Of a stretch of DNA of 64,000 nt, positions 1 to 64,000 are shown piece by piece. Source of the stretch: Escherichia coli (lineage in GTDB: Bacteria > Pseudomonadota > Gammaproteobacteria > Enterobacterales > Enterobacteriaceae); assembly GCF_003991155.1 (NCBI RefSeq), contig NZ_CP031293.1; one strand, given 5' to 3'. A program made the translations under genes and the position numbers. The notes below the pieces were generated by a model. The model was not told the DNA's origin. It did no database searches and saw only the letters and a list, made by a program, of their open reading frames with translations. Numbering within the stretch: position 1 is the stretch's first letter; every line of letters begins with the position of its first letter.

Positions 1-976
1 CCATCGCCTGGAAGTCCAGCATCCCCTGAACATGTGCGACGCAGCTCTGTGCCGCTTCTTTTTGCAATCTGGCGTGTTGCTGTGGATCCTGCTGTGCAGC
101 GCGCCATTGTTCTACGCTCCAGCCCATCGGTAGGTAGCCATAAACCAGATCGTGAGCGGAAGTCTGGTCGGTCACCAGATCCGGCTTGATCGCCCCCTGA
201 CGTGCACGTTTCACCAGTTCAGGAACAATTTCCGCCGCATTGCCCAACAGCGCGATTGAAACAGCGTCTTTGCGCTCAGTATGGTATTTAATCAGCGCCA
301 GTGCATCATCGAGATCTTTCGCTTGTTTATCGACATAACGGGTACGCAGACGGAAGTCGATGCTACTTTGCTGGCACTCGATATTTAATGAACACGCCCC
401 CGCCAGAGTCGCCGCCAGCGGTTGTGCACCGCCCATACCACCTAGCCCTGCGGTCAGGATCCATTTTCCACTCAGCGAATTGTTGTAGTGCTGACGACCC
501 GCTTCAACAAAGGTTTCGAACGTTCCCTGCACAATGCCCTGACTACCGATGTAGATCCACGAGCCAGCGGTCATCTGGCCGTACATGAACAGACCTTTAC
601 GATCCAGTTCATTGAAATGATCCCAGTTGGCCCATTGCGGTACCAGGTTAGAGTTGGCAATCAATACGCGCGGCGCATCGGTATGCGTTTTAAACACGCC
701 TACGGGTTTACCGGACTGAACCAGCAGTGACTCATCAGCTTCCAGATTTTTCAGTGATTCAAGGATTTTGTCAAAACACTCCCAGTTACGTGCCGCACGA
801 CCAATACCACCATACACCACCAGATGCTGTGGATTTTCGGCAACGTCGGGATCAAGGTTGTTCTGCAACATCCGATAGGCAGCTTCGATCTGCCAGTTTT
901 TGCAGTGCAGCTGCGTACCGTGTGGCGCATGGATTACACGGCTGGTATCAATACGCGGGTCTGAAGGCTTACTCAT
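1..976 (-). CDS. hutU: Urocanate hydratase, N-terminal ~325 codons; 3' end lies beyond the window edge
   Basis: Minus-strand frame open to position 1; ATG at 974-976 preceded by GGAG; my translation [23 protein letters not shown]...[15 protein letters not shown]...[15 protein letters not shown]...[13 protein letters not shown] matches the urocanase family. Confidence 0.85.
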
Positions 977-1041
977 GAATCTTCTCCTGTTACTTGATAA
1001 AATTAAACGCTGTAATCGGTCAGAAAAAACGAACGAATGAA

Positions 1042-1060
1042 TATAGAAACGGTTTCTATA
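1042..1060. promoter_or_regulatory. Perfect 9-1-9 palindrome TATAGAAAC-G-GTTTCTATA about 70 bp upstream of the hutU start; candidate operator
   Basis: Palindrome read directly from the sequence; no match to a named operator consensus asserted. Confidence 0.3.
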
Positions 1061-1733
1061 ATTCCCGTTTATCATTTTGTATTATTAATTCATTTAGTGA
1101 ATATTGTTTGTCGTGGTATATTCACTATGAATATAAATTCAAAACCACCAACGCGTTGTATGCGAATTCAATATGCTTAATTTAACTTGTCGAAAAAGTG
1201 ATATTGTTGGCAAAATATTTTCTAATTTGAACATATGAATATGATGAGATTGCAAGATGTCAGTAATTTAATTATATGAGAAATGCGTTAATAACGACCA
1301 GATATTAGCGTAACAACAGGTGTTCCGACACCACACAGTGCGCATAACACAATGATATTTAAAATAAGATCTTCATTATTCGTCATAAAGACATGTTTTA
1401 TTATCATTAATAATCCATTTGTTTTCATCCCACTTTTGATAATTAAAAAACGGCAACAATGGATAGTTACCCGACGTAAAAACAGGCGTAAAAATAAATC
1501 TTAAAATATATCCACTGGAAATTATCATTTTTCATATTTTACAATCTGGCGTCGATAACTGACCCCTTTTATAACACCCCCGTTTGTTAATAGTCTTTTT
1601 TATCTTGTATTGATCGTCATTGCTGCATACACTACGCGCGTTTTCTTTCCCTTTTGCTGGCTGCTGACCGGAAAGACAAAATTACCCTCGCAATAAAGGG
1701 GGTTGTTTAACGTCTATATTTCAGGACAGCGTT

Positions 1734-3131
1734 ATGCATCATCTTTCAAGGCTTGATAAAGCCTTTCTGCGCAAAGGGATCCAACTTTCCCGCGCCAACA
1801 ATATTGTTTCATTATGTCGTCCATCAGGAGCCAGTGCCCACGTACTGCTGCCGGACGAACTGCCGCTGGAAGAAAAAGCAGTGACACAACTGCTTGATTT
1901 TGCAGAAGTGAAGATACCAGACCATCCAGGTTACGTACGCCAGACCTGTGCGACGCCAGATTTTCATCCCGGCAATGGCGTCCCCGTTGGCGCGGTAGTC
2001 GCCTCTACGCCGGATTTAGTCATTCCTGCGGCCATCGGCACCGATATTTCTTGTGGCATGCGGCTGCTGACGACCGGATTAACACTTGAGCAAGCCGAAG
2101 CGAATAAAGAAATAATCACTCAGCGGTTAACACAAGTGTTACTGCAAAATGAGCGCGATGTTCCGTTATCCGCACGAGCGTTCACCGCGCTTTTTGATGG
2201 CGGACCGGCAGATTGCATGTCGGCCTTGCCATCAGCAGGTCTCTGGACACGTACAAATATCCCCCGAATGACGCAAGAGATTGACCGCTGCATTGGGCTT
2301 AACGAGCATAACAGTCATTCGCGTTATGCCCCACCCGCCCTACTGGTAACGGACCGCCCATTACTCCGCGATCCTTGTCTTGGTACGCCGGGTTCAGGTA
2401 ATCATTTTATTGAACTTCAGGTGGTTGATAGCGTGGTTGATCGCCATGTTGCCTGGCAACAAGGGCTGAAAACGGGCGATATTGTGGTGATGATCCACAG
2501 TGGATCGCGAGATGTTGGCTTTTACGTCGGAAGACGCTGGATGGATCGCGCCCGTGCTGAATGGCCCACCGGACATAAACATCCACAAAGCGGGTTATAT
2601 GGCCTGGCAGGCGGACTGGCGGAGGAATATCTACAAGCGATGGGAATGGCGGCGCGTTACGCGTGGTTAAATCGCGTCACAATTGCCGAAATGGTGCGCG
2701 TATGTCTTGCCAATCTCTTTCATCAGGACAATTCGCATCTGGTGGTGGATGTGCCGCATAACATCATCCTTCGCGAGCATGAAATGAATATTCATCGCAA
2801 AGGTGCAACACCGGCACGCGCGGGCAATCTGGCGTTAATCCCCGGTTCAATGGGCGATTATTCGTGGCTTGCAGTCGGTTGCGGCAACCCGGAGTGGCTG
2901 TGGTCTTGCAGTCACGGAGCAGGACGCAGCCAGCGTCGGCAGGCCATGCACTCACGCGCGACTGAAGAGTCAACGTTGCCGTGGCAATGCGTCACATTGC
3001 GCGAAGAACGGCGTATTGAAGAAGCGCCAGCTGCTTATAAAGATATTGGTCCGGTTATCGAAGCCCAACAAGAGGCCGGATTAATTCATCCAGCGGTTAG
3101 ATTCCGACCGTGGTTAACGTTTAAGGCATAA
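1734..3131 (+). CDS. RtcB-family RNA ligase paralogue (465 aa)
   Basis: ORF translation carries RtcB-type motifs: VIPAAIGTDISCGMRL, GSGNHFIELQ, IHSGSRDVG, IPGSMGDYS, CSHGAGR, AYKDIGPV; start codon uncertain (weak RBS). Confidence 0.85.
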   Translation: MHHLSRLDKAFLRKGIQLSRANNIVSLCRPSGASAHVLLPDELPLEEKAVTQLLDFAEVKIPDHPGYVRQTCATPDFHPGNGVPVGAVVASTPDLVIPAAIGTDISCGMRLLTTGLTLEQAEANKEIITQRLTQVLLQNERDVPLSARAFTALFDGGPADCMSALPSAGLWTRTNIPRMTQEIDRCIGLNEHNSHSRYAPPALLVTDRPLLRDPCLGTPGSGNHFIELQVVDSVVDRHVAWQQGLKTGDIVVMIHSGSRDVGFYVGRRWMDRARAEWPTGHKHPQSGLYGLAGGLAEEYLQAMGMAARYAWLNRVTIAEMVRVCLANLFHQDNSHLVVDVPHNIILREHEMNIHRKGATPARAGNLALIPGSMGDYSWLAVGCGNPEWLWSCSHGAGRSQRRQAMHSRATEESTLPWQCVTLREERRIEEAPAAYKDIGPVIEAQQEAGLIHPAVRFRPWLTFKA

Positions 3132-14859: not shown

Positions 14860-16170
14860 CTACACCAACAGCAAAGATATTGCCGGGATATAGGTAATAA
14901 CCAACAGCAGTAAAATAAGACTAACCAGTAGTGGCACCGCTTCTCGCATAAATTGCCCGACAGAAACCTGCACGGTATTACATACCAGCAGCATCACCGT
15001 TCCGACAGGCGGTGATAACGTTCCTAACGATAAGTTGAGGATCATGATGATGCCAAAATGCACCGGATCAATGCCAAAATGAGCCACCACAGGTTTAAGT
15101 AATGGAACTAATATCAGCAGGATGGCACTACCTTCAAGAAACATGCCAAGCACCAGCAGCAATAGATTGATAATCAATAAAAAGACGTATTTATTATCAG
15201 TCAGAGATGTCACAAACTCCGCAACCGTGATACCTGCCCGCTCAAGGGAAAATATCCAGCCCAGCGCGGCACTCGCCATAATGATTAACATGACCGATGC
15301 CGTCGAACGCGCCGTCTCTGAGAGTGCTGTAAATACATGGCTGATTTTCAGTTCGCGATAAATTACAAAACCAATAAACATCACCAATAATACTGCTACG
15401 GCTCCAGCTTCCGTTGGCGTAAAGATATTTGCCCGAATACCACCGATAACCGCAACAATTAAGAACAGTGCTGGCCAGGCCTGCACCAGCGCCACTGACA
15501 CTTCTTTCGGTTTTGGCCAGTGTTCGCTGGAAGGTTTTAAACCGCGCCGAATAGCTACCAGCCATACAGTGACAATCAACATGGCGGAACACAGCAGACC
15601 GGGCAGGATCCCGGCCATAAACATGGAGCCGATGGAGACATCCGCCACCAGTCCGTAAAGGATCAGTGCAATACCCGGTGGAATAATTGGTGTAATCAGC
15701 GAACCACTTGCCGTTATCGCCGCCGCAAAGCCACGGGAATAACCTTTCTGTTCCATTTCCGGCACCATCATGCGCGATAACATCGCAGCATCCGCCAGGT
15801 TTGAGGCGCTAACGCCGCCCATCATGGTACTGACCAGAATATTAGCCCCACCCAGACCACCGCGCATTCTGCCAATCAACACGTTGGCAATTTGCAAAAT
15901 ACGCGCGGCAATACCGGTATAGCTCATTAACGTGCCTAATAAGATAAAAAATGGAATAGCTAACAGCGAAGGGGTTTGCGTCGTGGCAATCAAACGCTGA
16001 ATTGCTACCATTAACGGCACATTTGAATAGCAAAGGAAGTAGGTCAGAATGCCGCAAAACATCGCCAGCCATACCGGCATATTGATAAATAAACAGATGA
16101 ACATAAGCGGAATGATCATTAGCCAGTTATCCAGCCAGCTTCCCGCCAGTAATTCACTCAATGCTGTCAT
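14860..16170 (-). CDS. TRAP transporter large permease (DctM family)
   Basis: 436-aa polytopic membrane ORF; start overlaps the dctQ stop by 1 nt. Confidence 0.85.
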   Translation of the reverse strand: MTALSELLAGSWLDNWLMIIPLMFICLFINMPVWLAMFCGILTYFLCYSNVPLMVAIQRLIATTQTPSLLAIPFFILLGTLMSYTGIAARILQIANVLIGRMRGGLGGANILVSTMMGGVSASNLADAAMLSRMMVPEMEQKGYSRGFAAAITASGSLITPIIPPGIALILYGLVADVSIGSMFMAGILPGLLCSAMLIVTVWLVAIRRGLKPSSEHWPKPKEVSVALVQAWPALFLIVAVIGGIRANIFTPTEAGAVAVLLVMFIGFVIYRELKISHVFTALSETARSTASVMLIIMASAALGWIFSLERAGITVAEFVTSLTDNKYVFLLIINLLLLVLGMFLEGSAILLILVPLLKPVVAHFGIDPVHFGIIMILNLSLGTLSPPVGTVMLLVCNTVQVSVGQFMREAVPLLVSLILLLLVITYIPAISLLLV

Positions 16171-16631
16171 TATTCACCTTCCTTGCGTGGCGTTTTCTTG
16201 ATCAGGTGTAAGGCAGTAAAACAGGCGATACCGATTGCACCAACCGTGACCGCAATATCGATCCAAAACCAGGATATTTTTAATATTTGCGTGGTTTTAA
16301 ATGCTGTTCCGGCAGCTAATTTCCATGCTGACCAAGCCATCACACTCAGTAAAACAATAGATATCAGAGAGACAAATAACGTTAAAACACGTTGCACGCG
16401 TGGTGTCAGTGCATCAGCTAAAAATGGAATCGACAAATGGGTATTATCCCGCTCGGCAACGACCGCACCAAACATGACTACCCAAATCATTAATAAACCG
16501 GAAACCTCTTCTGTCCACTGTAATGGCATATGAAAACAGTAACGCATTATTACCGCAGCAATGGTCATGATTACCAATATAAAGAGCGTTAATACCGCAG
16601 CAACTTCAATCATTTTCCCTAAAAGACGCAT
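16170..16631 (-). CDS. TRAP transporter small permease (DctQ family)
   Basis: About 153 aa with 4 predicted TM segments; start chosen at the ATG (MRLLGKMIEV...) with AGAGG RBS rather than the upstream GTG. Confidence 0.8.
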   Translation of the reverse strand: MRLLGKMIEVAAVLTLFILVIMTIAAVIMRYCFHMPLQWTEEVSGLLMIWVVMFGAVVAERDNTHLSIPFLADALTPRVQRVLTLFVSLISIVLLSVMAWSAWKLAAGTAFKTTQILKISWFWIDIAVTVGAIGIACFTALHLIKKTPRKEGE

Positions 16632-16650
16632 AAACACCTCTGCTCTTAAC

Positions 16651-16672
16651 GGTCGGTGCCGAAACACCGACC
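16651..16672 (-). other. Intercistronic hairpin between the TRAP binding-protein and permease genes (GGTCGGTG..CACCGACC)
   Basis: 8-bp perfect inverted repeat with 6-nt loop, read from the sequence. Confidence 0.4.
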
Positions 16673-16690
16673 AGTCCTTATGCCATGAAG

Positions 16691-17659
16691 TTATTTCAGC
16701 TGTTGCTGAATAGTGTCATACAAACCAGGGGTCCATTCCGGGAATTGTTGATAGACTTTTAAGGCTTTTTCTTTGAAAGGGGCGACGTCAGGATAGATAA
16801 TTTCCACGCCCTGCTCCTGCATGGTTTTCAACATTGTCGCATCCTGCTCAGTGGTAATTTTCTGGCTATATAAACCAGCTTCATACGCTGTCTGGTGAAT
16901 AATATCTAACTGCGCAGGTGTCAGGGTACTGAAAAACGCTTCACCACCCAACCATAATGATGTATTGGTCAGATAGTTCACCATTGACAGATATTTCGCC
17001 TGCTCATGCAGTTTTTGCCCATACAGAACAGAAACCGGGTTTTCCACACCATCGATCATCCCCTGCGTCAGCGCCGGATAAACGTCTCCCAGCGGCATTG
17101 GCGTTGGGGTTGCGCCCATTGCTTCAATGGCTTTAATCTGCATAACGTTATTCGGCACGCGGATCTTCATCCCTTTCAGGTCTTCAGGTGTACGAATCGG
17201 TTTTTTAGCAATGATCTGCCTGGTACCGTACAGATAGTTGCTCATGACAATATGCACACCTTTTTCCCGTAGTTTCTGTTCTTTTTGTTTAAACCAGTCA
17301 CTGGCATAAATCGCAAACAGTTTCTGCGGATCTTCGGTTAAATAAGGCCCAAACAATATTCCCAGGTCTGCATCGTAGTCAGTTAAAAATCCCACATCAC
17401 TGATGGTGATAATATTCATCCCCATCAACGCTTGTTCAGTAATATCTTGTTTAGAACCTAACTGTGAACTTGGGTAAAGTTCGAAAACAATATCTCCATT
17501 GCTTTTTTTCTTCACAAGTTCTGCCCAGTGCTTCACTACTGTATCCGCTGGCTCGCCGGGGTTACTTTCATAGGCGATTTTGATAGTTACCGGTGCGGCA
17601 TTCAGCATCGGACTAAATAAAGCGAAAAGAAATAAAAGTGGTGTCAGTAATTTTTTCAT
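16691..17659 (-). CDS. TRAP transporter periplasmic solute-binding protein (DctP family)
   Basis: 322 aa; signal peptide MKKLLTPLLFLFALFSPMLNA; conserved KIRVP region typical of carboxylate-binding DctP proteins. Confidence 0.85.
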   Translation of the reverse strand: MKKLLTPLLFLFALFSPMLNAAPVTIKIAYESNPGEPADTVVKHWAELVKKKSNGDIVFELYPSSQLGSKQDITEQALMGMNIITISDVGFLTDYDADLGILFGPYLTEDPQKLFAIYASDWFKQKEQKLREKGVHIVMSNYLYGTRQIIAKKPIRTPEDLKGMKIRVPNNVMQIKAIEAMGATPTPMPLGDVYPALTQGMIDGVENPVSVLYGQKLHEQAKYLSMVNYLTNTSLWLGGEAFFSTLTPAQLDIIHQTAYEAGLYSQKITTEQDATMLKTMQEQGVEIIYPDVAPFKEKALKVYQQFPEWTPGLYDTIQQQLK

Positions 17660-17686
17660 TATTATTACCTGTAAGAGCTTTATCGA

Positions 17687-18883
17687 TTAACGGGGATCTG
17701 CCCGACAGACTGCACTTTTGCTGTAATCAAATGCTTTATACGTTAAAACAAACTCCTGATGTTCCAGTCGTTCTGCGGCACAATATTGACCGTTGGCGAC
17801 ATGTTCAATCACCTGCATAATATCGTCTGCAATATCGTCGAGCGTTGCGCCTTCGCTAATTACACGACCGGCATTAACGTCCATATCGTCAGATAAATGC
17901 TCCCACGTCTGCGGGTTATTACACACTTTAATAATAGGAGCGATCACTGAACCAATAACTGAACCGCGACCTGTGGTAAATAACACCATATGACAGCCAG
18001 AGGCGATAAGTTCCAGTGCTTCTGAGGAATCGTTAATATTCGGATACCCAAAACGAGGTTCACCATCAGGCACCACGTCCATCAACCAAAGCCCAGGAAA
18101 GGGCGTTTGTTGCGTCGGCAAAATAACGCCAGCAATCAGCGCATCGCCCGACTTGGTATAAGCCCCAAGGGATTTTTCTTCCTGAGTGGTTAAGCCGCCT
18201 TCAGCATTACCATTAGAAAAACTCCCCAGCCCCATCAAACTGTAATAACGTTCGGCTTTTGCCATTGCCACTTCGATGGCATCACGTGCCTGCGAACTAG
18301 CCGCGCGCGACATCATATGCTGCTCACAACCAAGCAACTCACCGCTTTCTTCAAAAATACAGGTAGCCCCTTTCTCCAGCAGTTGGTCAAAGGCACGTCC
18401 TACTGCCGGGTTACCCGTGATACCACTGGTGCCATCGGAGCCACCGCAGATAGTACCAACCACCAGGTCGCTCCAGTTCAGGATACAACGCGGTGTATCC
18501 GCAAGCTGTTCCAGCATTTCAGCGACCAACTGCTTACCCAGAGTAATGGTGTTGGTCGTGCCTTTATTTTCCTGAATGACCAGCGTATGGCACGGTCGCC
18601 CACTTTCTCGTACTTCTTGCTCCAGCCGACGGCGATCAAAATTCTCGCACCCCAGCGAAATAATCAGTACACCACCTACGTTGCTATGAATCGCCAGATT
18701 TTTTACCAGACGATAGCCATAATCGCTGGGATAACAACCTGAAAAACCAAAATACTGCACGTCGTGACAAGGAAATCCTTCGGCAATCTTTTTAGCGACA
18801 TGGCTGGCACACTCCACCATAAAGATTACCTGCACAGTATTACGAATACCCGGTCGACCATTTTGCCGTACATAACCTTCCAT
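17687..18883 (-). CDS. UxaA-family (altronate/galactarate dehydratase-like) large subunit
   Basis: 398-aa ORF MEGYVRQNGRPGIRNTVQVIFMVECASHV... resembling the C-terminal catalytic part of UxaA/GarD; start overlaps the small-subunit stop (TAATG). Confidence 0.8.
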   Translation of the reverse strand: MEGYVRQNGRPGIRNTVQVIFMVECASHVAKKIAEGFPCHDVQYFGFSGCYPSDYGYRLVKNLAIHSNVGGVLIISLGCENFDRRRLEQEVRESGRPCHTLVIQENKGTTNTITLGKQLVAEMLEQLADTPRCILNWSDLVVGTICGGSDGTSGITGNPAVGRAFDQLLEKGATCIFEESGELLGCEQHMMSRAASSQARDAIEVAMAKAERYYSLMGLGSFSNGNAEGGLTTQEEKSLGAYTKSGDALIAGVILPTQQTPFPGLWLMDVVPDGEPRFGYPNINDSSEALELIASGCHMVLFTTGRGSVIGSVIAPIIKVCNNPQTWEHLSDDMDVNAGRVISEGATLDDIADDIMQVIEHVANGQYCAAERLEHQEFVLTYKAFDYSKSAVCRADPR

Positions 18884-19194
18884 TATGCTTTTTCCTCTGG
18901 CTGATAGCCGGCATCATCATGATGAAAAATGGCGATGGCATTGCTGGCAAGATTATGGGAATGCACATGTTCACCCATGGCAATATCGCGAGTGGCGTGT
19001 CCGATAATGGCGCCGTATTTCAGAATCGAATCACCATTGTTCAGCGCTTCGCAGGCCAGTTTGTGACCCAGGGTAACGGAACTACAGGCCACCATTTCCC
19101 CCTCATCCCACCAGACAATATCGCCACTGGCGATGTCATTCAGCGCGACTACACAGTTATCTTTGGCATGTAGCTTTAACGCACGTTTGCGCAT
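18883..19194 (-). CDS. SAF-domain small subunit of the split UxaA-type dehydratase
   Basis: About 103 aa from MRKRALKLHAKDNCVVALNDIASGDIV... with GGAGG RBS; corresponds to the N-terminal domain of single-chain UxaA. Confidence 0.7.
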   Translation of the reverse strand: MRKRALKLHAKDNCVVALNDIASGDIVWWDEGEMVACSSVTLGHKLACEALNNGDSILKYGAIIGHATRDIAMGEHVHSHNLASNAIAIFHHDDAGYQPEEKA

Positions 19195-19208
19195 AATTCC
19201 TCCGTACA

Positions 19209-19964
19209 TCAGAAGCCGATCAATGCGCCGCCATCCACCACCAGCACCTGACCACTGACAAATGCCGCTGCGTCTGAAGCCAGATAAACCGCAGCCCAAC
19301 CGATATCTTCCGGCTTGCCGAATTTTTTCATCGGTGTCCGCCCCAGGATTTTGTTACGGCGTTCGTCATCACCTTCAATGGCCTTACGCAACATTGGTGT
19401 ATCGATCCAGCCTGGCGCAATACCGTTGACGCGAATCCCATGAACGGCAAGCTCCGTGGTCATACCGCGAATCATGCCGAGATAGGCTGACTTCGCTGCG
19501 CTGTAGCCAGTAACCAGAGGCTGCCCAAGAAATGAGGTCATCGATGCAGTAAAAAGCACACAGCCTTGACCGCGTTGTTTCATATGCGGCACCAGCGCTT
19601 TGGTTAACGCAAATGCGCCGACTACGTGAACGTCGAGTACTGACTCAAAATCACTGACGCTCATCTCTTCAATCGGTTTTTTGCAGTGATTGCCTGCGTT
19701 ATTGACCAGGATATCGATAGCCCCGTGTTCGCTAATAAGCGCATCAACTTTTTCCTGCGCGGCTGCGGTATCCCCGACATCCATTTGTATCCAACTGGCC
19801 TGCGACCCCAATGTTCCGGCGGTCGCTTGCGCCAGCTCGCCGTTCAGGTCAGCAATAATGACCTTCGCCCCGCTGACTATCATGCATTTCGCCATTGCCA
19901 GCCCCAGCCCACTGGCTGCACCGGTGATCAACGCGGTTTTGTTATGTAAAGAAAAAGCATTCAT
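19209..19964 (-). CDS. Short-chain dehydrogenase/reductase (KduD/IdnO-like)
   Basis: 251 aa; TGAASGLG nucleotide-binding motif, IDILVNNAG, YSAAK catalytic motif; AAGGAG RBS. Confidence 0.85.
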   Translation of the reverse strand: MNAFSLHNKTALITGAASGLGLAMAKCMIVSGAKVIIADLNGELAQATAGTLGSQASWIQMDVGDTAAAQEKVDALISEHGAIDILVNNAGNHCKKPIEEMSVSDFESVLDVHVVGAFALTKALVPHMKQRGQGCVLFTASMTSFLGQPLVTGYSAAKSAYLGMIRGMTTELAVHGIRVNGIAPGWIDTPMLRKAIEGDDERRNKILGRTPMKKFGKPEDIGWAAVYLASDAAAFVSGQVLVVDGGALIGF

Positions 19965-19975
19965 GGTGTCGCTCC

Positions 19976-20989
19976 TTAAAGGTCAATGAGGATTTTGGTA
20001 TACGCGCCGGGATCACTTGCCCAGTCGCTAAAAGCATGATCAGCCTGTTCCAGCGGGTAGTGAGCACTCACCAGATTGCTGACCGGATAACGCCCGGACT
20101 CCATCAATGCCAGCACGGCACGAAAATCCGCCACGGTGGCATTGCGCGAACCACGGATATCCAGTTCTTTCATCAGGAACTGCGCACTCTGATAACTCAC
20201 TGGCTGTTTGGCGTAACCGACATAAACCACACGACCGCTAAACGCCACCAACCCTGTAGCCTGTTCAATGGTTTGTTGATTACCCACCGCTTCAATCACC
20301 ACTTCCGGGCCGCGACCGTCATTTAACAGCACCAGTTCTGCCGCCACGTCACATTGCTGCGAATTAAGAAAACGTTGCGCACCGCATTCCAGGGCAATGT
20401 TCTGCTTGCGATCATCAATATCGATAGCAATTACGCGCGCCCCCATGGCGGATGCCGCGGCGATAGCGCCAAGGCCAATTACCCCACAACCGATAACTGC
20501 GACCCATTCACCCACATTAATTTGCGCACGTCTGGCCGCATGTAGTCCCACGGCCAGCGGTTCTACCAGCGCTAACTCATCAACACTTAAGGCATTACAG
20601 ACAATGACTTTATGTGCAGGCATCGTCAGTTGTTGCGCCATCCCCCCCTGACGTTGCACACCAAGAGTTTGGTTGTTTTTACAGGCGTTAGGACGACCGC
20701 TCAGACAGGAGCTGCACACGCCACACTCAGTGCAAGGCAGAACGACCACCCGGTCACCTGGCTTGATCGCCCCTGCCATATCGCCAGTTGCCAGCACCGT
20801 GCCGCCAATTTCATGCCCCGGAATACAGGGATAATTAACCAGCGGATTCAGTCCCCGCCATGTATTGAGGTCAGAACCACACAGTCCGACACGCTCAACA
20901 TTGATTAGCACTTCTCCTTTACCGCAGACAGGTTCGGGGATATCAACAAATCGCGCCTGACTTCCCTGCTCAATGGTTAATGCCTTCAT
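19976..20989 (-). CDS. Zinc-dependent medium-chain dehydrogenase (IdnD / sorbitol dehydrogenase-like)
   Basis: 337 aa; GLCGSDL, GHEIGG, structural-zinc Cys cluster CTECGVCSSC, GCGVIGLG NAD fold; AAGGAGA RBS. Confidence 0.85.
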   Translation of the reverse strand: MKALTIEQGSQARFVDIPEPVCGKGEVLINVERVGLCGSDLNTWRGLNPLVNYPCIPGHEIGGTVLATGDMAGAIKPGDRVVVLPCTECGVCSSCLSGRPNACKNNQTLGVQRQGGMAQQLTMPAHKVIVCNALSVDELALVEPLAVGLHAARRAQINVGEWVAVIGCGVIGLGAIAAASAMGARVIAIDIDDRKQNIALECGAQRFLNSQQCDVAAELVLLNDGRGPEVVIEAVGNQQTIEQATGLVAFSGRVVYVGYAKQPVSYQSAQFLMKELDIRGSRNATVADFRAVLALMESGRYPVSNLVSAHYPLEQADHAFSDWASDPGAYTKILIDL

Positions 20990-21001
20990 TCATTGCTCTC
21001 C

Positions 21002-21688
21002 TTACATTACGCCGAAGGTTTCAAAGGCCTGTACCGTGCTCATGCCATCACTGATGGCTTTGCGCACTTCACTTTCAGTTGCCACTTTTTCCAGGGCCTG
21101 GGTAATAACTTCTTTCTCAACAACCTGGGGAATAATCAGTAATCCATCACGATCACCAAACACGATATCGCCCGGATTCACCCGCACGCCGTGAAATTCA
21201 ATAGGTACGCCGAAGTCGATGACCTTGCCGCGCGGACCTTGATCTTGTGCGTAAGTGCCATGACAAAAGGTGGGAAATTTCAATTCAAGAATTTCAGCAG
21301 AGTCACGGGCGTAACCATCGAGTACCGCACCTGCTGCTTTCAGATGCATGGCACGGGTAGACATCAACCCGCCCCACAAGGCATAGCGCAGAGAGCTGCC
21401 CGTAGTGATGTAAACATCGTTCTCTTTGAGGGCATCCAGCGCTTCAAACATGATGCCAAACGGTTTTTCGCCAATCGCCGTCTTACCCGACGTCGATTTG
21501 GTTTCGTAAACGTCCGACTCCAGCACCGGCATTGCCCGGCCTGCCACCACCGTATTCACATCCAGCGGCTTGATTGCCGGAGAAACAAACTGGTGCATAT
21601 AGCCCAGCGTGTCGAGAATATCGCCAACCACGGCGGTAAATAGCCGGGTTTTCATCAAAGCAAAAAGTTCGTTATCACTCTTCCACAT
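21002..21688 (-). CDS. RraA-like protein, putative class II 4-hydroxy-2-oxoacid aldolase
   Basis: About 228 aa from MWKSDNELFALMKTRLFTAVVGDILD... (RraA/MenG-like fold family); first gene of the operon. Confidence 0.75.
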   Translation of the reverse strand: MWKSDNELFALMKTRLFTAVVGDILDTLGYMHQFVSPAIKPLDVNTVVAGRAMPVLESDVYETKSTSGKTAIGEKPFGIMFEALDALKENDVYITTGSSLRYALWGGLMSTRAMHLKAAGAVLDGYARDSAEILELKFPTFCHGTYAQDQGPRGKVIDFGVPIEFHGVRVNPGDIVFGDRDGLLIIPQVVEKEVITQALEKVATESEVRKAISDGMSTVQAFETFGVM

Positions 21689-21694
21689 TATTTT

Positions 21695-21728
21695 CACCCT
21701 GTAAGCCTGTTTAACAGGTTTACAGGGT
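21695..21728. promoter_or_regulatory. Nested perfect palindrome (ACCCTGTAA-G-CCTGTT-T-AACAGG-T-TTACAGGGT) at the 5' end of the operon; candidate operator or RBS-occluding RNA hairpin
   Basis: Read from the sequence; lies 7 nt upstream of the RraA-like start codon and overlaps its Shine-Dalgarno region. Confidence 0.35.
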
Positions 21729-21951
21729 AAGGAGAAAAAGCGCACAATACTGCGAAGGGCGTCACGAAAAAGTTGTGTATTTACTATTTCTTCGCCACTC
21801 TTTCACACAATATGTCTTTGATTCGCACTGCATGGCGGGCGCACAGGCGCAGTAGTCTATTGATAATCAAGGGTTCTGGAGGAAAATATGAAGGATACAG
21901 TCCCGGTATTCTGGATTTTACCGACCAGGAAAAAGTACAACAGGAGTAAAA

Positions 21952-22665
21952 ATGAGTGAGAGTGCGTTATTGACCAGCGTAACGTTATCGTCACAGGTCA
22001 AAAATCATATTCTTAATCTGATCGCCGAACAAAAATTGACACCGGGGATGCCAGTTCCCAGTGAAATTCAGTTGATTCAGAAATTGGGCGTCAGTCGGGG
22101 TATTGTGCGTGAGGCCTATCGTTCACTTGCCGCCCTGGGGATTCTGGAAACGCACAGCGGTAAAGTGCCACGGATCAAAAAATTTGATGATGAAGTGCTG
22201 CGCGTGGTGTTTGGATTTGCCCTGGCGACCGAACAAGTAACAACAGAGCAAATTCTTCAAGTACGTCGCTGGCTAGAGTTGGGCGTTGTGGAAGCTGCTG
22301 CCCGTAATGGCGGAGAAGAAGATTTTGCTAACCTACGGGCTGAAATGGCAAAAATCCGCGAACAGTTCGATGATGTCGAAAGCTTTATCACCCATGACAT
22401 CCGCTTCCATCAGTTACTCGCCGTTGCCTCAAAAAATCCGCTTTTTATGATGTTATTGCAGGCATTACATCAGCAATTGCGGCAATCCATCCAGGAGGGA
22501 TTAAACGCCCAAAGCGATCAGAAAGAGTATGGCAATCACATCATCACACTACACCAGAAAATCTGCGACGCTGTGTGTGCCAGAGATGTCGAAACGGCGA
22601 CTCAAGCCATGAAATCACACTTCGACAGCCCGGTCAGTGCACTGATCAATAATTCCTCGCCATAA
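21952..22665 (+). CDS. GntR-family transcriptional regulator (FadR-type C-terminal domain)
   Basis: 237 aa; N-terminal winged HTH (EIQLIQKLGVSRGIVREAYRSL) followed by an all-helical domain; divergent from the catabolic operon. Confidence 0.85.
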   Translation: MSESALLTSVTLSSQVKNHILNLIAEQKLTPGMPVPSEIQLIQKLGVSRGIVREAYRSLAALGILETHSGKVPRIKKFDDEVLRVVFGFALATEQVTTEQILQVRRWLELGVVEAAARNGGEEDFANLRAEMAKIREQFDDVESFITHDIRFHQLLAVASKNPLFMMLLQALHQQLRQSIQEGLNAQSDQKEYGNHIITLHQKICDAVCARDVETATQAMKSHFDSPVSALINNSSP

Positions 22666-51361: not shown

Positions 51362-53026
51362 TTACTCGCCTACTTTCGCCCAGGTATCACGCAGCCCAAC
51401 GGTGCGGTTAAATACCGGTTTTTCCGCCGTAGAATGGCGGCTGTCGAGGCAGAAATAACCTTCACGCTCAAACTGGAATGCTTTACCCGCAACCGCATCT
51501 TTCAGCGACGGTTCAGCAAAGCCCTGTTTGATCACCAGCGATTCCGGGTTAATCACCGACAGGAAATCATCCGCAGCACCAGGGTTCGGCACGCTGAACA
51601 GACGGTCATACAAACGGATTTCAACCGGCAGCGCATGTGCCGCGCTCACCCAGTGAATAACACCTTTGACTTTACGACCATCTGCCGGATCTTTGCTTAA
51701 GGTGTCGGCGTCATAAGTACAGAAGATGGTGGTGATATTGCCTTCGGCATCTTTCTCGACGCGTTCTGCCTTAATGACGTAAGCATTACGCAGACGCACT
51801 TCTTTACCCAGCACCAGACGCTTGTACTGCTTGTTAGCTTCTTCGCGGAAATCGGCGCGATCGATCCAAATCTCACCGCTAAACGGCACCTGACGGCTCC
51901 CCATTTCCGGTTTGTTCGGATGGTTCGGCATGGTAACCATTTCGCCTTCGCCCTGATAGTTTTCGATAACCAGTTTCACCGGATCGATAACCGCCATTGC
52001 GCGCGGGGCGTTTTCGTTGAGATCTTCACGGATGCAGGATTCCAGCGACGCCATTTCAATGGTGTTGTCCTGCTTGGTCACGCCGATGCGTTTGCAGAAC
52101 TCACGAATAGAAGCCGCAGTGTAACCACGACGACGCAGACCGGAAATGGTCGGCATACGCGGGTCATCCCAGCCTTCAACGTGCTTGTCTGTCACCAGCA
52201 GGTTCAGCTTACGCTTGGACATCACAGTGTATTCCAGATTCAGGCGCGAGAATTCGTACTGGCGCGGGTGAACAGGAATGGTGATGTTGTCCAGCACCCA
52301 GTCGTACAGGCGACGGTTGTCCTGGAACTCAAGCGTACACAGAGAGTGCGTAATACCTTCCAGCGCATCGCTGATGCAGTGGGTGAAGTCGTACATCGGG
52401 TAGATGCACCACTTGTTGCCAGTCTGGTGGTGTTCAGCAAACTTAATGCGGTACAGCACCGGATCGCGCATCACGATAAACGGCGAAGCCATGTCGATTT
52501 TCGCACGCAGGCAGGCTTTACCTTCTTCAAAACCGCCGGTACGCATTTTCTCGAACAGCGCCAGGTTCTCTTCAACGCTGCGATCGCGGTACGGGCTGTT
52601 TTTACCCGGCTGCGTCAAGGTGCCGCGGTATTCGCGGATCTGTTCCGGCGTCAGTTCATCAACGTACGCCAGGCCTTTATTGATCAGTTCGATCGCATAG
52701 GCGTGGAGCTGATCAAAATAATCGGAGGAGTAACGGACGTTACCAGACCAGTGAAAACCTAACCACTCAACGTCGTTTTTGATCGACTCAACATACTCGA
52801 TATCTTCTTTTACCGGGTTAGTGTCGTCGAAACGCAGGTTGCACTGGCCTTTATAGTCCTGGGCGATCCCGAAGTTCAGGCAGATAGATTTCGCATGGCC
52901 AATATGCAGATAGCCATTCGGCTCCGGCGGGAAACGGGTGTGTACTGTGGTGTGCTTACCACTGGCCAGATCTTCATCGATGATCTGACGAATAAAGTTA
53001 GTCGGGCGGGCTTCTGCCTCACTCAT
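51362..53026 (-). CDS. glnS: Glutaminyl-tRNA synthetase
   Basis: 554 aa; HIGH motif ([14 protein letters not shown]) and VMSK (KMSKS-class) motif. Confidence 0.97.
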
Positions 53027-61508: not shown

Positions 61509-61946
61509 TTATTGAGGTGCTTGTTGATTCTGATATGCAGTAAGGAAATGTTCCGGGTTTGCCACATCACTGTTTGACAACTCATTACTGTAGGCCACCG
61601 ACCAGGTCGCCTGCTCATCCGGAATATGCAGGCTGCCATTCCCCTCTTTCAGGCGTAATAACTCAAAAGATTTGCCCTTAATTACGGCGGTATAGGATTT
61701 TTCACCTTCCTGTAATGCTTTCACTTTACAGCGAAAAATCTGGCCATCGATGTCATTATCAACATGCGATACCTGAATGAGGGCTTCATTAGAGGCTTTC
61801 GGCCCTATCCGCATCATCCACACCACAGCGCCTTCCTGCCCACGATAGCCAAAAACATATTTACCGATTTCCGGTTTGACCGTATCGGCAAACGCAGATT
61901 GCATAAGTAATAACGCACCCATCAGCGCCGTCATAAAACGCAGCAT
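61509..61946 (-). CDS. Hypothetical secreted protein (145 aa, cleavable signal peptide)
   Basis: ATG with GAGGGAA RBS; N-terminus MLRFMTALMGALLLMQSAFA-DTVKPE...; no family recognised. Confidence 0.65.
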   Translation of the reverse strand: MLRFMTALMGALLLMQSAFADTVKPEIGKYVFGYRGQEGAVVWMMRIGPKASNEALIQVSHVDNDIDGQIFRCKVKALQEGEKSYTAVIKGKSFELLRLKEGNGSLHIPDEQATWSVAYSNELSNSDVANPEHFLTAYQNQQAPQ

Positions 61947-62209
61947 AGTATTCCCTCAATAAATCGCCTGAAGTGGTAGCAGAGATGCAGGCGTAGCGAT
62001 CCCTGCCCTGTCCTGTTGCAACGGGCCAGTATTTCATAGATTAATTTCCCACCACTATTGTTGAATTCCGAATTTCATCCTGTATGACAAAAGAATGGCT
62101 GTAGGGTGGGGAAAAAACACAAAGTAAACAATAATTGACGAATATAGCGCCACGCTGTTCGCAACCTAACCAAACAGTCACTTTCGAGCAATTTTCCTTG
62201 AAAAAGAGG

Positions 62210-62246
62210 TTGACGCTGCAAGGCTCTATACGCATAATGCGCCCCG
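62210..62246 (+). promoter_or_regulatory. tRNA operon promoter (-35 TTGACG, 17-bp spacer, -10 CATAAT, GC-rich discriminator)
   Basis: Read from the sequence; the GCGCCCCGC discriminator is typical of stringently controlled stable-RNA promoters. Confidence 0.55.
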
Positions 62247-62278
62247 CAACGCCGATAAGGTATCGCGAAAAAAAAGAT

Positions 62279-62355
62279 GGCTACGTAGCTCAGTTGGTTA
62301 GAGCACATCACTCATAATGATGGGGTCACAGGTTCGAATCCCGTCGTAGCCACCA
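62279..62355 (+). tRNA. metT: tRNA-Met (elongator, CAU)
   Basis: GGCTACGTAGCTCAGTTGGTTAGAGC...CTCATAA...GGTTCGAATCC...CCA cloverleaf. Confidence 0.93.
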
Positions 62356-62363
62356 TCTTTTTT

Positions 62364-62448
62364 GCGGGAGTGGCGAAATTGGTAGACGCACCAGATTTAG
62401 GTTCTGGCGCCGCAAGGTGTGCGAGTTCAAGTCTCGCCTCCCGCACCA
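62364..62448 (+). tRNA. leuW: tRNA-Leu (UAG), long variable arm
   Basis: GCGGGAGTGGCGAAATTGGTAGACGC...TTTAGGT...GAGTTCAAGTCTCGCCTCCCGCACCA. Confidence 0.9.
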
Positions 62449-62471
62449 TTCACCAGAAAGCGTTGTACGGA

Positions 62472-62546
62472 TGGGGTATCGCCAAGCGGTAAGGCACCGG
62501 TTTTTGATACCGGCATTCCCTGGTTCGAATCCAGGTACCCCAGCCA
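62472..62546 (+). tRNA. glnU: tRNA-Gln (UUG)
   Basis: TGGGGTATCGCCAAGCGGTAAGGCACCGGTTTTTGATACCGG...CCA. Confidence 0.92.
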
Positions 62547-62580
62547 TATTCTTCGAGTAAGCGGTTCACCGCCCGGTTAT

Positions 62581-62655
62581 TGGGGTATCGCCAAGCGGTA
62601 AGGCACCGGTTTTTGATACCGGCATTCCCTGGTTCGAATCCAGGTACCCCAGCCA
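62581..62655 (+). tRNA. glnW: tRNA-Gln (UUG), identical copy
   Basis: Same sequence as the 62472-62546 copy. Confidence 0.92.
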
Positions 62656-62670
62656 TCGAAGAAACAATCT

Positions 62671-62747
62671 GGCTACGTAGCTCAGTTGGTTAGAGCACAT
62701 CACTCATAATGATGGGGTCACAGGTTCGAATCCCGTCGTAGCCACCA
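62671..62747 (+). tRNA. metU: tRNA-Met (elongator, CAU), second copy
   Basis: Identical to the 62279-62355 copy. Confidence 0.93.
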
Positions 62748-62795
62748 AATTCTGAATGTGTCGAATGTGTTCGGCAAATTCACAAACCAATTTGT

Positions 62796-62870
62796 TGGGG
62801 TATCGCCAAGCGGTAAGGCACCGGATTCTGATTCCGGCATTCCGAGGTTCGAATCCTCGTACCCCAGCCA
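62796..62870 (+). tRNA. glnV: tRNA-Gln (CUG)
   Basis: TGGGGTATCGCCAAGCGGTAAGGCACCGGATTCTGATTCCGG...CCA. Confidence 0.92.
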
Positions 62871-62907
62871 ATTTATTCAAGACGCTTACCTTGTAAGTGC
62901 ACCCAGT

Positions 62908-62982
62908 TGGGGTATCGCCAAGCGGTAAGGCACCGGATTCTGATTCCGGCATTCCGAGGTTCGAATCCTCGTACCCCAGCCA
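62908..62982 (+). tRNA. glnX: tRNA-Gln (CUG), second copy
   Basis: Identical to the 62796-62870 copy. Confidence 0.92.
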
Positions 62983-62985
62983 CAT

Positions 62986-63012
62986 TAAAAAAGCTCGCTT
63001 CGGCGAGCTTTT
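62986..63012 (+). terminator. Intrinsic terminator of the tRNA operon
   Basis: Stem AAAAGCTCGC/GCGAGCTTTT followed by a T-run. Confidence 0.7.
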
Positions 63013-63027
63013 TGCTTTTCTGCGTAT

Positions 63028-63110
63028 ATTCAATGTCGAATGCGATGTTGACACGTCTTATCCTTCAAAGTCGGATGCGACGCTGACGCGTCTTATCCGA
63101 CCTACGGTTG
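63028..63110. repeat. REP/BIME-like palindromic units
   Basis: CGAATGCGATGTTGACACGTCTTATCC and GTCGGATGCGACGCTGACGCGTCTTATCCGACCTAC resemble REP consensus. Confidence 0.5.
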
Positions 63111-63135
63111 GCATGCATCCGGCAATGTTGTAAGG

Positions 63136-64000
63136 CTACAACCCTAACGCATATTTCAGCGCCTGACGTTTCAACACGCCAGCACGCTCCGCCGCCATCA
63201 AACCAAGATTACGCACAAAACGCAGCGGCGGCAGATTATTACTGAATCCGGCATAAAACAGATCCATACCGCTTTGCATAATGAAGTTATCCGCCATACG
63301 CCGCATCTGGTAACGCTTGAGGACAGGATAACTGGCCCACGCTTCACCGTAGCTGCGGGCATTCACCAGAACGTCAATCAGCGCATCAACATCGCGATAA
63401 CCGAGGTTAACCCCCTGCCCCGCCAACGGATGAATGGTGTGCGCGGCATCGCCCACCAGCGCAAGCCCTGGTTGCACATACTGCAACGCATGGCGACGTG
63501 TCAGCGGAAACGCACCAGCGGCAAGCGGTGTCACGTAACCCAGACGCGACGGGAAATGCTTCGCGATTTCCGCCTGGAGCTGCGCCATATTCATATTCTG
63601 CAACTGGCGAATACGCGCCGGAGAGTCATACCACACCAGCGACGCCCAGTTATCAAACAGCGGCAAAAACGCACGCGGCCCGTCCGGAGTAAACTGCTGC
63701 CAGGTGCTGTCGCCGGGATCATTCTCGCACTGTACGCTAATCAACATACACGACTGCGCATACTGCCAGGCATGAACGCCAATTCCCGCTATCTGCCGCA
63801 CCTGCGAATTTGCGCCATCGGCACCAATCACCAGCTTCGCGCGGATCGTTTCACCGCCCTTCAGTTCCAGCTCCTGAAGATCATTATGGCGATGCAGCGC
63901 AATCAGCGAGCCTGGCACACGTAACGTTACTTTCGGATGCGCTTCCAGCGCCTGCCACAGCGCCTGTTGCAGGACAGTGTTTTCCACCATGTAGCCAAGC
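63136..64000 (-). CDS. ubiF: Ubiquinone biosynthesis FAD-dependent hydroxylase, C-terminal ~288 codons; 5' end beyond the window
   Basis: Minus-strand frame open to the window end; translation ...GADGANSQVRQIAGIG...HPLAGQGVNLGYRDVDALIDVL... Confidence 0.9.
   Translation of the reverse strand, partial: LGYMVENTVLQQALWQALEAHPKVTLRVPGSLIALHRHNDLQELELKGGETIRAKLVIGADGANSQVRQIAGIGVHAWQYAQSCMLISVQCENDPGDSTWQQFTPDGPRAFLPLFDNWASLVWYDSPARIRQLQNMNMAQLQAEIAKHFPSRLGYVTPLAAGAFPLTRRHALQYVQPGLALVGDAAHTIHPLAGQGVNLGYRDVDALIDVLVNARSYGEAWASYPVLKRYQMRRMADNFIMQSGMDLFYAGFSNNLPPLRFVRNLGLMAAERAGVLKRQALKYALGL

Follow-up and report, generated by a model that had tools for sequence, protein, structure and literature searches.

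What are the direct repeats between asnB and ubiF in the Escherichia coli DNA analysed here: a repeat array in its own right, an acquired tRNA island, or a core operon with duplicated members? Across the window, by which we mean the whole 64,000-nucleotide stretch, a generic repeat finder lists two direct-repeat families at this locus, with irregular spacings of 109, 215 and 112 nt, and the warning in the earlier note that the region could be confused with a repeat array was fair, since an 82-nt and an 86-nt family are indeed reported. We find that the locus is almost certainly the metT tRNA operon, a single co-transcribed unit that would be matured as published for K-12.

Gene content and identity of the duplicated copies

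To establish the gene content, we scanned the window with ARAGORN and Rfam. From 62279 to 62982 ARAGORN placed seven tRNA genes, all on the + strand, and the Rfam tRNA model RF00005 recovered the same set with scores of 57.6-71.1 bits, the gathering score being 29; each was aligned to the full model (1-71). The two programs agree on the order Met(CAU), Leu(UAG), two Gln(UUG), Met(CAU), two Gln(CUG) (Table 1). [quoted passage not shown] The 3' CCA is genomically encoded in 7/7 genes, as ACCA in the Met and Leu genes and as GCCA in the Gln genes. Over the whole 64-kb window, the Rfam and ARAGORN scans returned no tRNA or RNA family beyond these seven.

Table 1. Positions of the regulatory elements and genes of the metT operon, counted from the first base of the window.
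Feature	Position	Strand	Basis
A/T-rich stretch AATTTTCCTTGAAAAAGAGG just upstream of the -35 hexamer; possible UP element	62190-62209	+	Sequence
-35 hexamer TTGACG	62210-62215	+	Promoter scan; invariant in 7 genera
-10 hexamer CATAAT, after a 17-nt spacer	62233-62238	+	Promoter scan, 10/12 matches; TACGCATAAT invariant in 7 genera
G+C-rich discriminator GCGCCCCG, directly after CATAAT	62239-62246	+	Sequence; invariant in 7 genera
Probable 5' leader, ~33 nt, removed by RNase P	62246-62278	+	Sequence
metT, elongator tRNA-Met(CAU), CCA encoded	62279-62355	+	ARAGORN, Rfam; same as K-12 metT
leuW, tRNA-Leu(UAG), 85 nt, long variable arm	62364-62448	+	ARAGORN, Rfam; same as K-12 leuW
glnU, tRNA-Gln(UUG)	62472-62546	+	ARAGORN, Rfam, string comparison, K-12 comparison
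glnW, tRNA-Gln(UUG), identical to glnU	62581-62655	+	ARAGORN, Rfam, string comparison, K-12 comparison
metU, elongator tRNA-Met(CAU), identical to metT	62671-62747	+	ARAGORN, Rfam, string comparison, K-12 comparison
glnV, tRNA-Gln(CUG)	62796-62870	+	ARAGORN, Rfam, string comparison, K-12 comparison
glnX, tRNA-Gln(CUG), identical to glnV	62908-62982	+	ARAGORN, Rfam, string comparison, K-12 comparison
Rho-independent terminator, 11-bp stem with core GCUCGC-UUCG-GCGAGC, then UUUUUGCUUUUCU	62988-63022	+	Terminator scan, fold

Both Met genes encode elongator tRNA rather than initiator tRNA-fMet or lysidine tRNA-Ile2: G1 and C72 are paired, the anticodon stem, CAUCA/UGAUG, lacks the GGG/CCC run of three G-C pairs, and the sequence is that of K-12 metT. 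The same two genes have been named as identical elongator tRNA-Met genes (PMC6265465).

In a direct string comparison the two members of each pair, Met, Gln(UUG) and Gln(CUG), were 100% identical, so that the identity asserted in the earlier note is borne out base for base; this identity is lost within 0-2 nt of where the genes end. Between the two Gln isoacceptors, 7/75 positions differ. The six inter-gene spacers, of 8, 23, 34, 15, 48 and 37 nt, are mutually unrelated. These comparisons bear directly on the possibility that the repeats form a non-tRNA array (CRISPR-like, REP/BIME-like or minisatellite) and that the tRNA calls are coincidental. The output of the repeat finder, four copies of an 82-nt unit and two of an 86-nt unit, is what such a reading would build on, but each unit is a complete tRNA that scores 57-71 bits where the threshold is 29, with a proper anticodon and an encoded CCA, and each is identical to a named K-12 tRNA gene; moreover, the spacers are unequal in length (8-48 nt), and three different families make up the units, with the single-copy leuW in addition. 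We therefore regard a coincidental array as vanishingly improbable. A CRISPR or other interspersed repeat array was considered separately and rejected, as the region does not consist of short uniform repeats with regular spacers. The direct repeats at 62270-62987 are wholly accounted for by duplicated tRNA genes and do not constitute an unexplained repeat array.

Chromosomal position and relation to K-12

The array is flanked by asnB and ubiF, as in K-12. A search with the 1-kb region matched 5424 of the 5426 complete E. coli genomes, with at least 80% query coverage in 5281 of them, which agrees with the description of the locus in the earlier note as a core array. In many E. coli chromosomes the 1-kb region is 100% identical and carries the annotation tRNA-Leu, tRNA-Met (two) and tRNA-Gln (four), which excludes chance as the source of the gene calls. 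At the scale of the entire window, a single base in 64,000 differs from E. coli 2016C-3878.

Comparison with K-12 revealed the same seven genes in the same order, 7/7 at 100% identity, together with the same promoter, leader and terminator sequences and the same asnB and ubiF neighbours. Five differences fall within the operon, all of them in spacers (an indel at 62357, positions 62548, 62760 and 62767, and an indel at 62783), and two substitutions lie just beyond the terminator. The present strain also differs from K-12 in having about 426 bp extra between asnB and the promoter, a segment that bears an open reading frame of 145 aa.

We also weighed whether the array could have arrived by horizontal transfer, as a tRNA island on a phage, plasmid or integrative element, instead of being a core locus. 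Large phages hold single tRNA-Gln and tRNA-Leu genes at 85-91% identity, and 35 records of a plasmid collection match the region. The phage matches, however, are confined to single tRNA genes and cover at most 19% of the query, and the array occupies the same asnB-ubiF position in Escherichia, Klebsiella, Enterobacter and Yersinia, as well as being matched in nearly every complete E. coli genome (see above). A mobile origin is accordingly so improbable that we give it practically no weight. Plasmid-borne copies were likewise rejected: the 12 near-full-length plasmid matches (H53-H64, PLSDB) are megabase-sized or flanked by asnB/ubiF and appear to represent chromosomes or pieces of them filed as plasmids, in a check that left out one 28.8-kb E. 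coli record (CP043024.1, 92.9% identity). The core locus is already known as the textbook metT operon, and nothing about it is novel.

Promoter, terminator and maturation of the transcript

A consensus pattern scan of 61900-63300, of a kind that could overlook weak internal promoters, returned one promoter-like site, TTGACG-17-CATAAT at 62210-62238. This fits the single promoter proposed in the earlier note, whose start coordinate, 62210, is exactly where the -35 hexamer begins. The -35, the -10 and the G+C-rich discriminator are invariant in seven genera of Enterobacterales. In the 7-genus alignment of upstream regions, in which Klebsiella aerogenes, K. pneumoniae, Enterobacter hormaechei, Yersinia pseudotuberculosis, Proteus mirabilis and Arsenophonus nasoniae were set against E. 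coli, neither the -35 hexamer nor the block TACGCATAATGCGCCCCGCAAC.CCGA changes, save for one base in Arsenophonus, whereas the sequence between these two elements, and upstream of both, varies across genera. Because the -35 hexamer and the TACGCATAATGCGCCCCGCAAC.CCGA block are kept while their surroundings vary, this phylogenetic footprint is good evidence of a functional promoter. Further upstream, Klebsiella and Enterobacter have kept the motif TTTTC.TTGAAAAAG; Yersinia, Proteus and Arsenophonus still have a run of A.

The position of the -10 hexamer and the design of a published primer point to a transcription start at ~62245-62246. The in-vitro precursor of an earlier study was built on the native 5' end, with a primer beginning CGCAACGCCGATAAGGTA, which corresponds to window position 62245 (PMC3985628), and a pre-metT species of ~125 nt with an unprocessed 5' end, which accumulates in rnpA49 mutants (PMC2241853), fits a leader of ~33 nt and a start at this site. 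G+C-rich discriminators go together with promoters of stable RNAs that are subject to stringent control and to control by supercoiling (PMC8422995). The metT promoter carries such a discriminator, as expected from its earlier description as 'stringent-type'; that label draws on the discriminator sequence only, which suggests sensitivity to ppGpp. In the searchable literature we found general statements on discriminators and no direct ppGpp/DksA test of the metT promoter.

At the other end of the operon, the terminator starts five bases past glnX, its stem ends at 63013 and the U-tract runs to about 63022. The hairpin folds at -17.9 kcal/mol (z = -4.45), and 0/200 shuffled sequences were as stable. 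The strong terminator of the earlier note is therefore present as a stable hairpin with a U-tract, the end given there, 63012, being one base short of the stem end. Orthologous arrays have a hairpin and a T-run in the same place, with compensatory stems GCTCAC/GTGAGC, GCCCGC/GCGGGC and GCTCGC/GCGGGC in Klebsiella, Enterobacter and Yersinia. That promoter and terminator are conserved is established here from direct comparison, as are gene content, copy identity, K-12 identity and synteny.

Co-transcription, the processing pathway and essentiality are carried over by analogy from the literature on K-12; all the experimental data come from K-12 derivatives, whose functional elements are identical in the present strain. 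In K-12, northern blots with nine probes detected one full-length transcript comprising the 5' leader, the seven tRNAs and the terminator (PMC2241853), as expected for the operon under one promoter that the earlier note described, and a terminator-specific probe picks up this full-length transcript in rne mutants (PMC2241853). In the same study, removal of the terminator and the cuts downstream of metU were attributed mainly to RNase E, the five upstream tRNAs were separated by RNase P cuts at the mature 5' ends, and the 3' ends were finished by RNase T, PH and D (PMC2241853). RNase E cuts the triphosphorylated precursor via direct entry, and the glnW tRNA, which lies upstream, stimulates its cleavage 3' of metU (PMC3985628, PMC9841416).

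By this analogy, sigma-70 RNA polymerase would start at the single strong promoter, whose discriminator is of the type linked to growth-rate and ppGpp control. The predicted precursor, roughly 780 nt, would consist of the ~33-nt leader and the seven tRNAs with their spacers, ending at the hairpin and U-tract. RNase E would take off the terminator and cut downstream of metU, as published for K-12, RNase P would next cut at each mature 5' end and so separate the tRNAs, and 3' exonucleases would trim the products to the encoded CCA.

Could the locus instead be split into two or more transcription units, an internal promoter within a longer spacer, such as metU-glnV, adding materially to expression? 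At 48 nt this spacer is the longest of the six, and a metU-glnV-glnX species is present in rne-1 mutants (PMC2241853). That species, however, was ascribed to an RNase P cut at the 5' end of metU and is without upstream spacer sequence, and the full-length band hybridises with both the 5' leader and the terminator probes (PMC2241853); our + strand consensus scan also found no second promoter-like site. We consider a second unit very unlikely and retain the reading of a single co-transcribed operon, with which none of the results is in conflict.

The operon would be the source of all tRNA-Gln (both isoacceptors), all elongator tRNA-Met and the sole tRNA-Leu(UAG), and for this reason it would be essential. 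In keeping with this, the unit was not deletable without complementation in K-12 derivatives, where it holds all copies with the anticodons CAU (elongator), UAG, UUG and CUG (PMC11480407, PMC6265465). Its biological importance lies both in this reported essentiality and in its use as a standard model substrate of the two enzymes, RNase E and RNase P.

Five other E. coli tRNA operons, argX-hisR-leuT-proM, glyW-cysT-leuZ, valV-valW, leuQPV and secG-leuU, resemble metT in having one promoter, several tRNAs and a Rho-independent terminator, and in being processed by endonucleases followed by 3' exonucleases (PMC2241853). The division of labour varies: for metT and secG-leuU the main task of RNase E is to take off the terminator, and the tRNAs are parted by RNase P; the glyW and argX operons are RNase E-dependent; and two other polycistronic tRNA transcripts are processed by RNase P alone (PMC2241853).

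Each of the three longer spacers, glnU-glnW (62547-62580), metU-glnV (62748-62795) and glnV-glnX (62871-62907), contains one small hairpin. Across the window and the loci L009-L011, these hairpins occupy the same relative position in Escherichia, Klebsiella and Enterobacter with differing stem sequences, and in the comparison of four genera each is weakly better than shuffled sequences (z from -0.2 to -3.6). With individual z-scores this weak, we do not claim the hairpins as an established feature. Small-RNA sponging by released spacer fragments has been described in other E. coli tRNA operons. It is doubtful that the present hairpins are functional parts of the precursor, either as RNase E determinants or, once released, as small-RNA sponges.

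Probable homogenisation of the copies, array variants and neighbouring features

The arrays of Klebsiella, Enterobacter, Yersinia, Proteus and Arsenophonus all begin Met-Leu-Gln(UUG)-Gln(UUG), as in E. coli. Among these other Enterobacterales the promoter core is invariant, the terminator lies in the same position and paralogues are usually identical within a genome. Differences are found in the later part of the array and in its length: the Yersinia array has six genes and that of Arsenophonus five, against seven in E. coli, and in Proteus a third Gln(UUG) and a second Leu replace the Gln(CUG) pair.

The Gln(UUG) genes of Yersinia are 8 positions away from those of E. coli, and its Met genes are 4 away, whereas within Yersinia the two copies of each are identical. 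Klebsiella behaves likewise, its paralogues and those of Yersinia being identical within the genome even where they are 4-8 nt from E. coli. Since paralogues are identical within species and differ between species, and since the spacers are unrelated, the copies are probably kept identical by purifying selection on the tRNA, to which we would add gene conversion as a probable contributor. On this reading, the spacers would drift while the duplicated genes stay identical, and the identical repeats would permit the occasional gain or loss of a unit. An apparent exception is found in Enterobacter hormaechei, where the second Gln(CUG) gene (locus L010, 1298-1372) differs from the first at 10/75 positions, compensatory stem changes included. 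This copy appears from its sequence to have escaped homogenisation, because the other paralogue pairs, in E. hormaechei and in most of the species examined, are identical.

Variants also occur within E. coli. Strain FORC_082 has a six-gene array with a single Gln(CUG) gene (locus L003, 2196-2270), around which the upstream spacer and terminator are normal. This is a clean loss of one unit and fits unequal recombination of the identical glnV and glnX repeats. Coverage of the query by the best match falls below 80% in 143 of the 5424 matching genomes, so array variants of this kind are uncommon.

In CY598, the seventh gene (locus L005, 1308-1382, equivalent to window 62908-62982) has the anticodon CTA in place of CTG, a supE-type amber suppressor allele. 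ARAGORN labels this gene tRNA-Pyl, and the RefSeq annotation leaves it out. Duplicate copies let one member turn into a supE-type suppressor, as in CY598: a spare identical copy can change its decoding.

The one puzzling case is CEA224S, deposited as a complete genome (NZ_CP166080.1; locus L004, 2450-2850, equivalent to window 62278-62982), in which the metT promoter and leader run straight into the glnX terminator. Missing are 705 bp, which reach from one base ahead of metT to the final base of glnX, and the junction shows 1-nt microhomology. A chromosome search found no other copy of the array in this strain, and no tRNA is annotated on its 134-kb plasmid. Because the metT unit is reported to be essential, the gap is most likely an assembly artefact, though the precision of the junction is odd.

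Several features of the surrounding DNA were recorded alongside the operon. The 145-aa open reading frame (61509-61946, - strand) lies between asnB and the metT promoter, is directed away from the promoter and has a signal-peptide-like N-terminus. It is annotated as a hypothetical protein only (WP_000943488.1), and a Pfam search with it gave no match. The extra segment missing in K-12, at about 61598-62024, is present in 985 of the 5426 complete E. coli genomes. On the other side of the operon, two tandem 35-nt REP-like repeats, 86% identical, occupy 63029-63098, between the operon terminator and the 3' end of ubiF, which is convergent.

Further away, glnS, encoding glutaminyl-tRNA synthetase (51362-53026, - strand), is situated about 9 kb from the four tRNA-Gln genes, the only ones in the cell, a linkage already known in K-12. 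A cluster comprising a GntR regulator, an RraA-family gene, a dehydrogenase, a UxaA-family gene and a TRAP transporter is found between abrB and gltA (14860-22665), and an RtcB-family gene and hutU lie beyond sucD (1-3131). With respect to the K-12 map, both gene sets may be accessory content that varies among strains.
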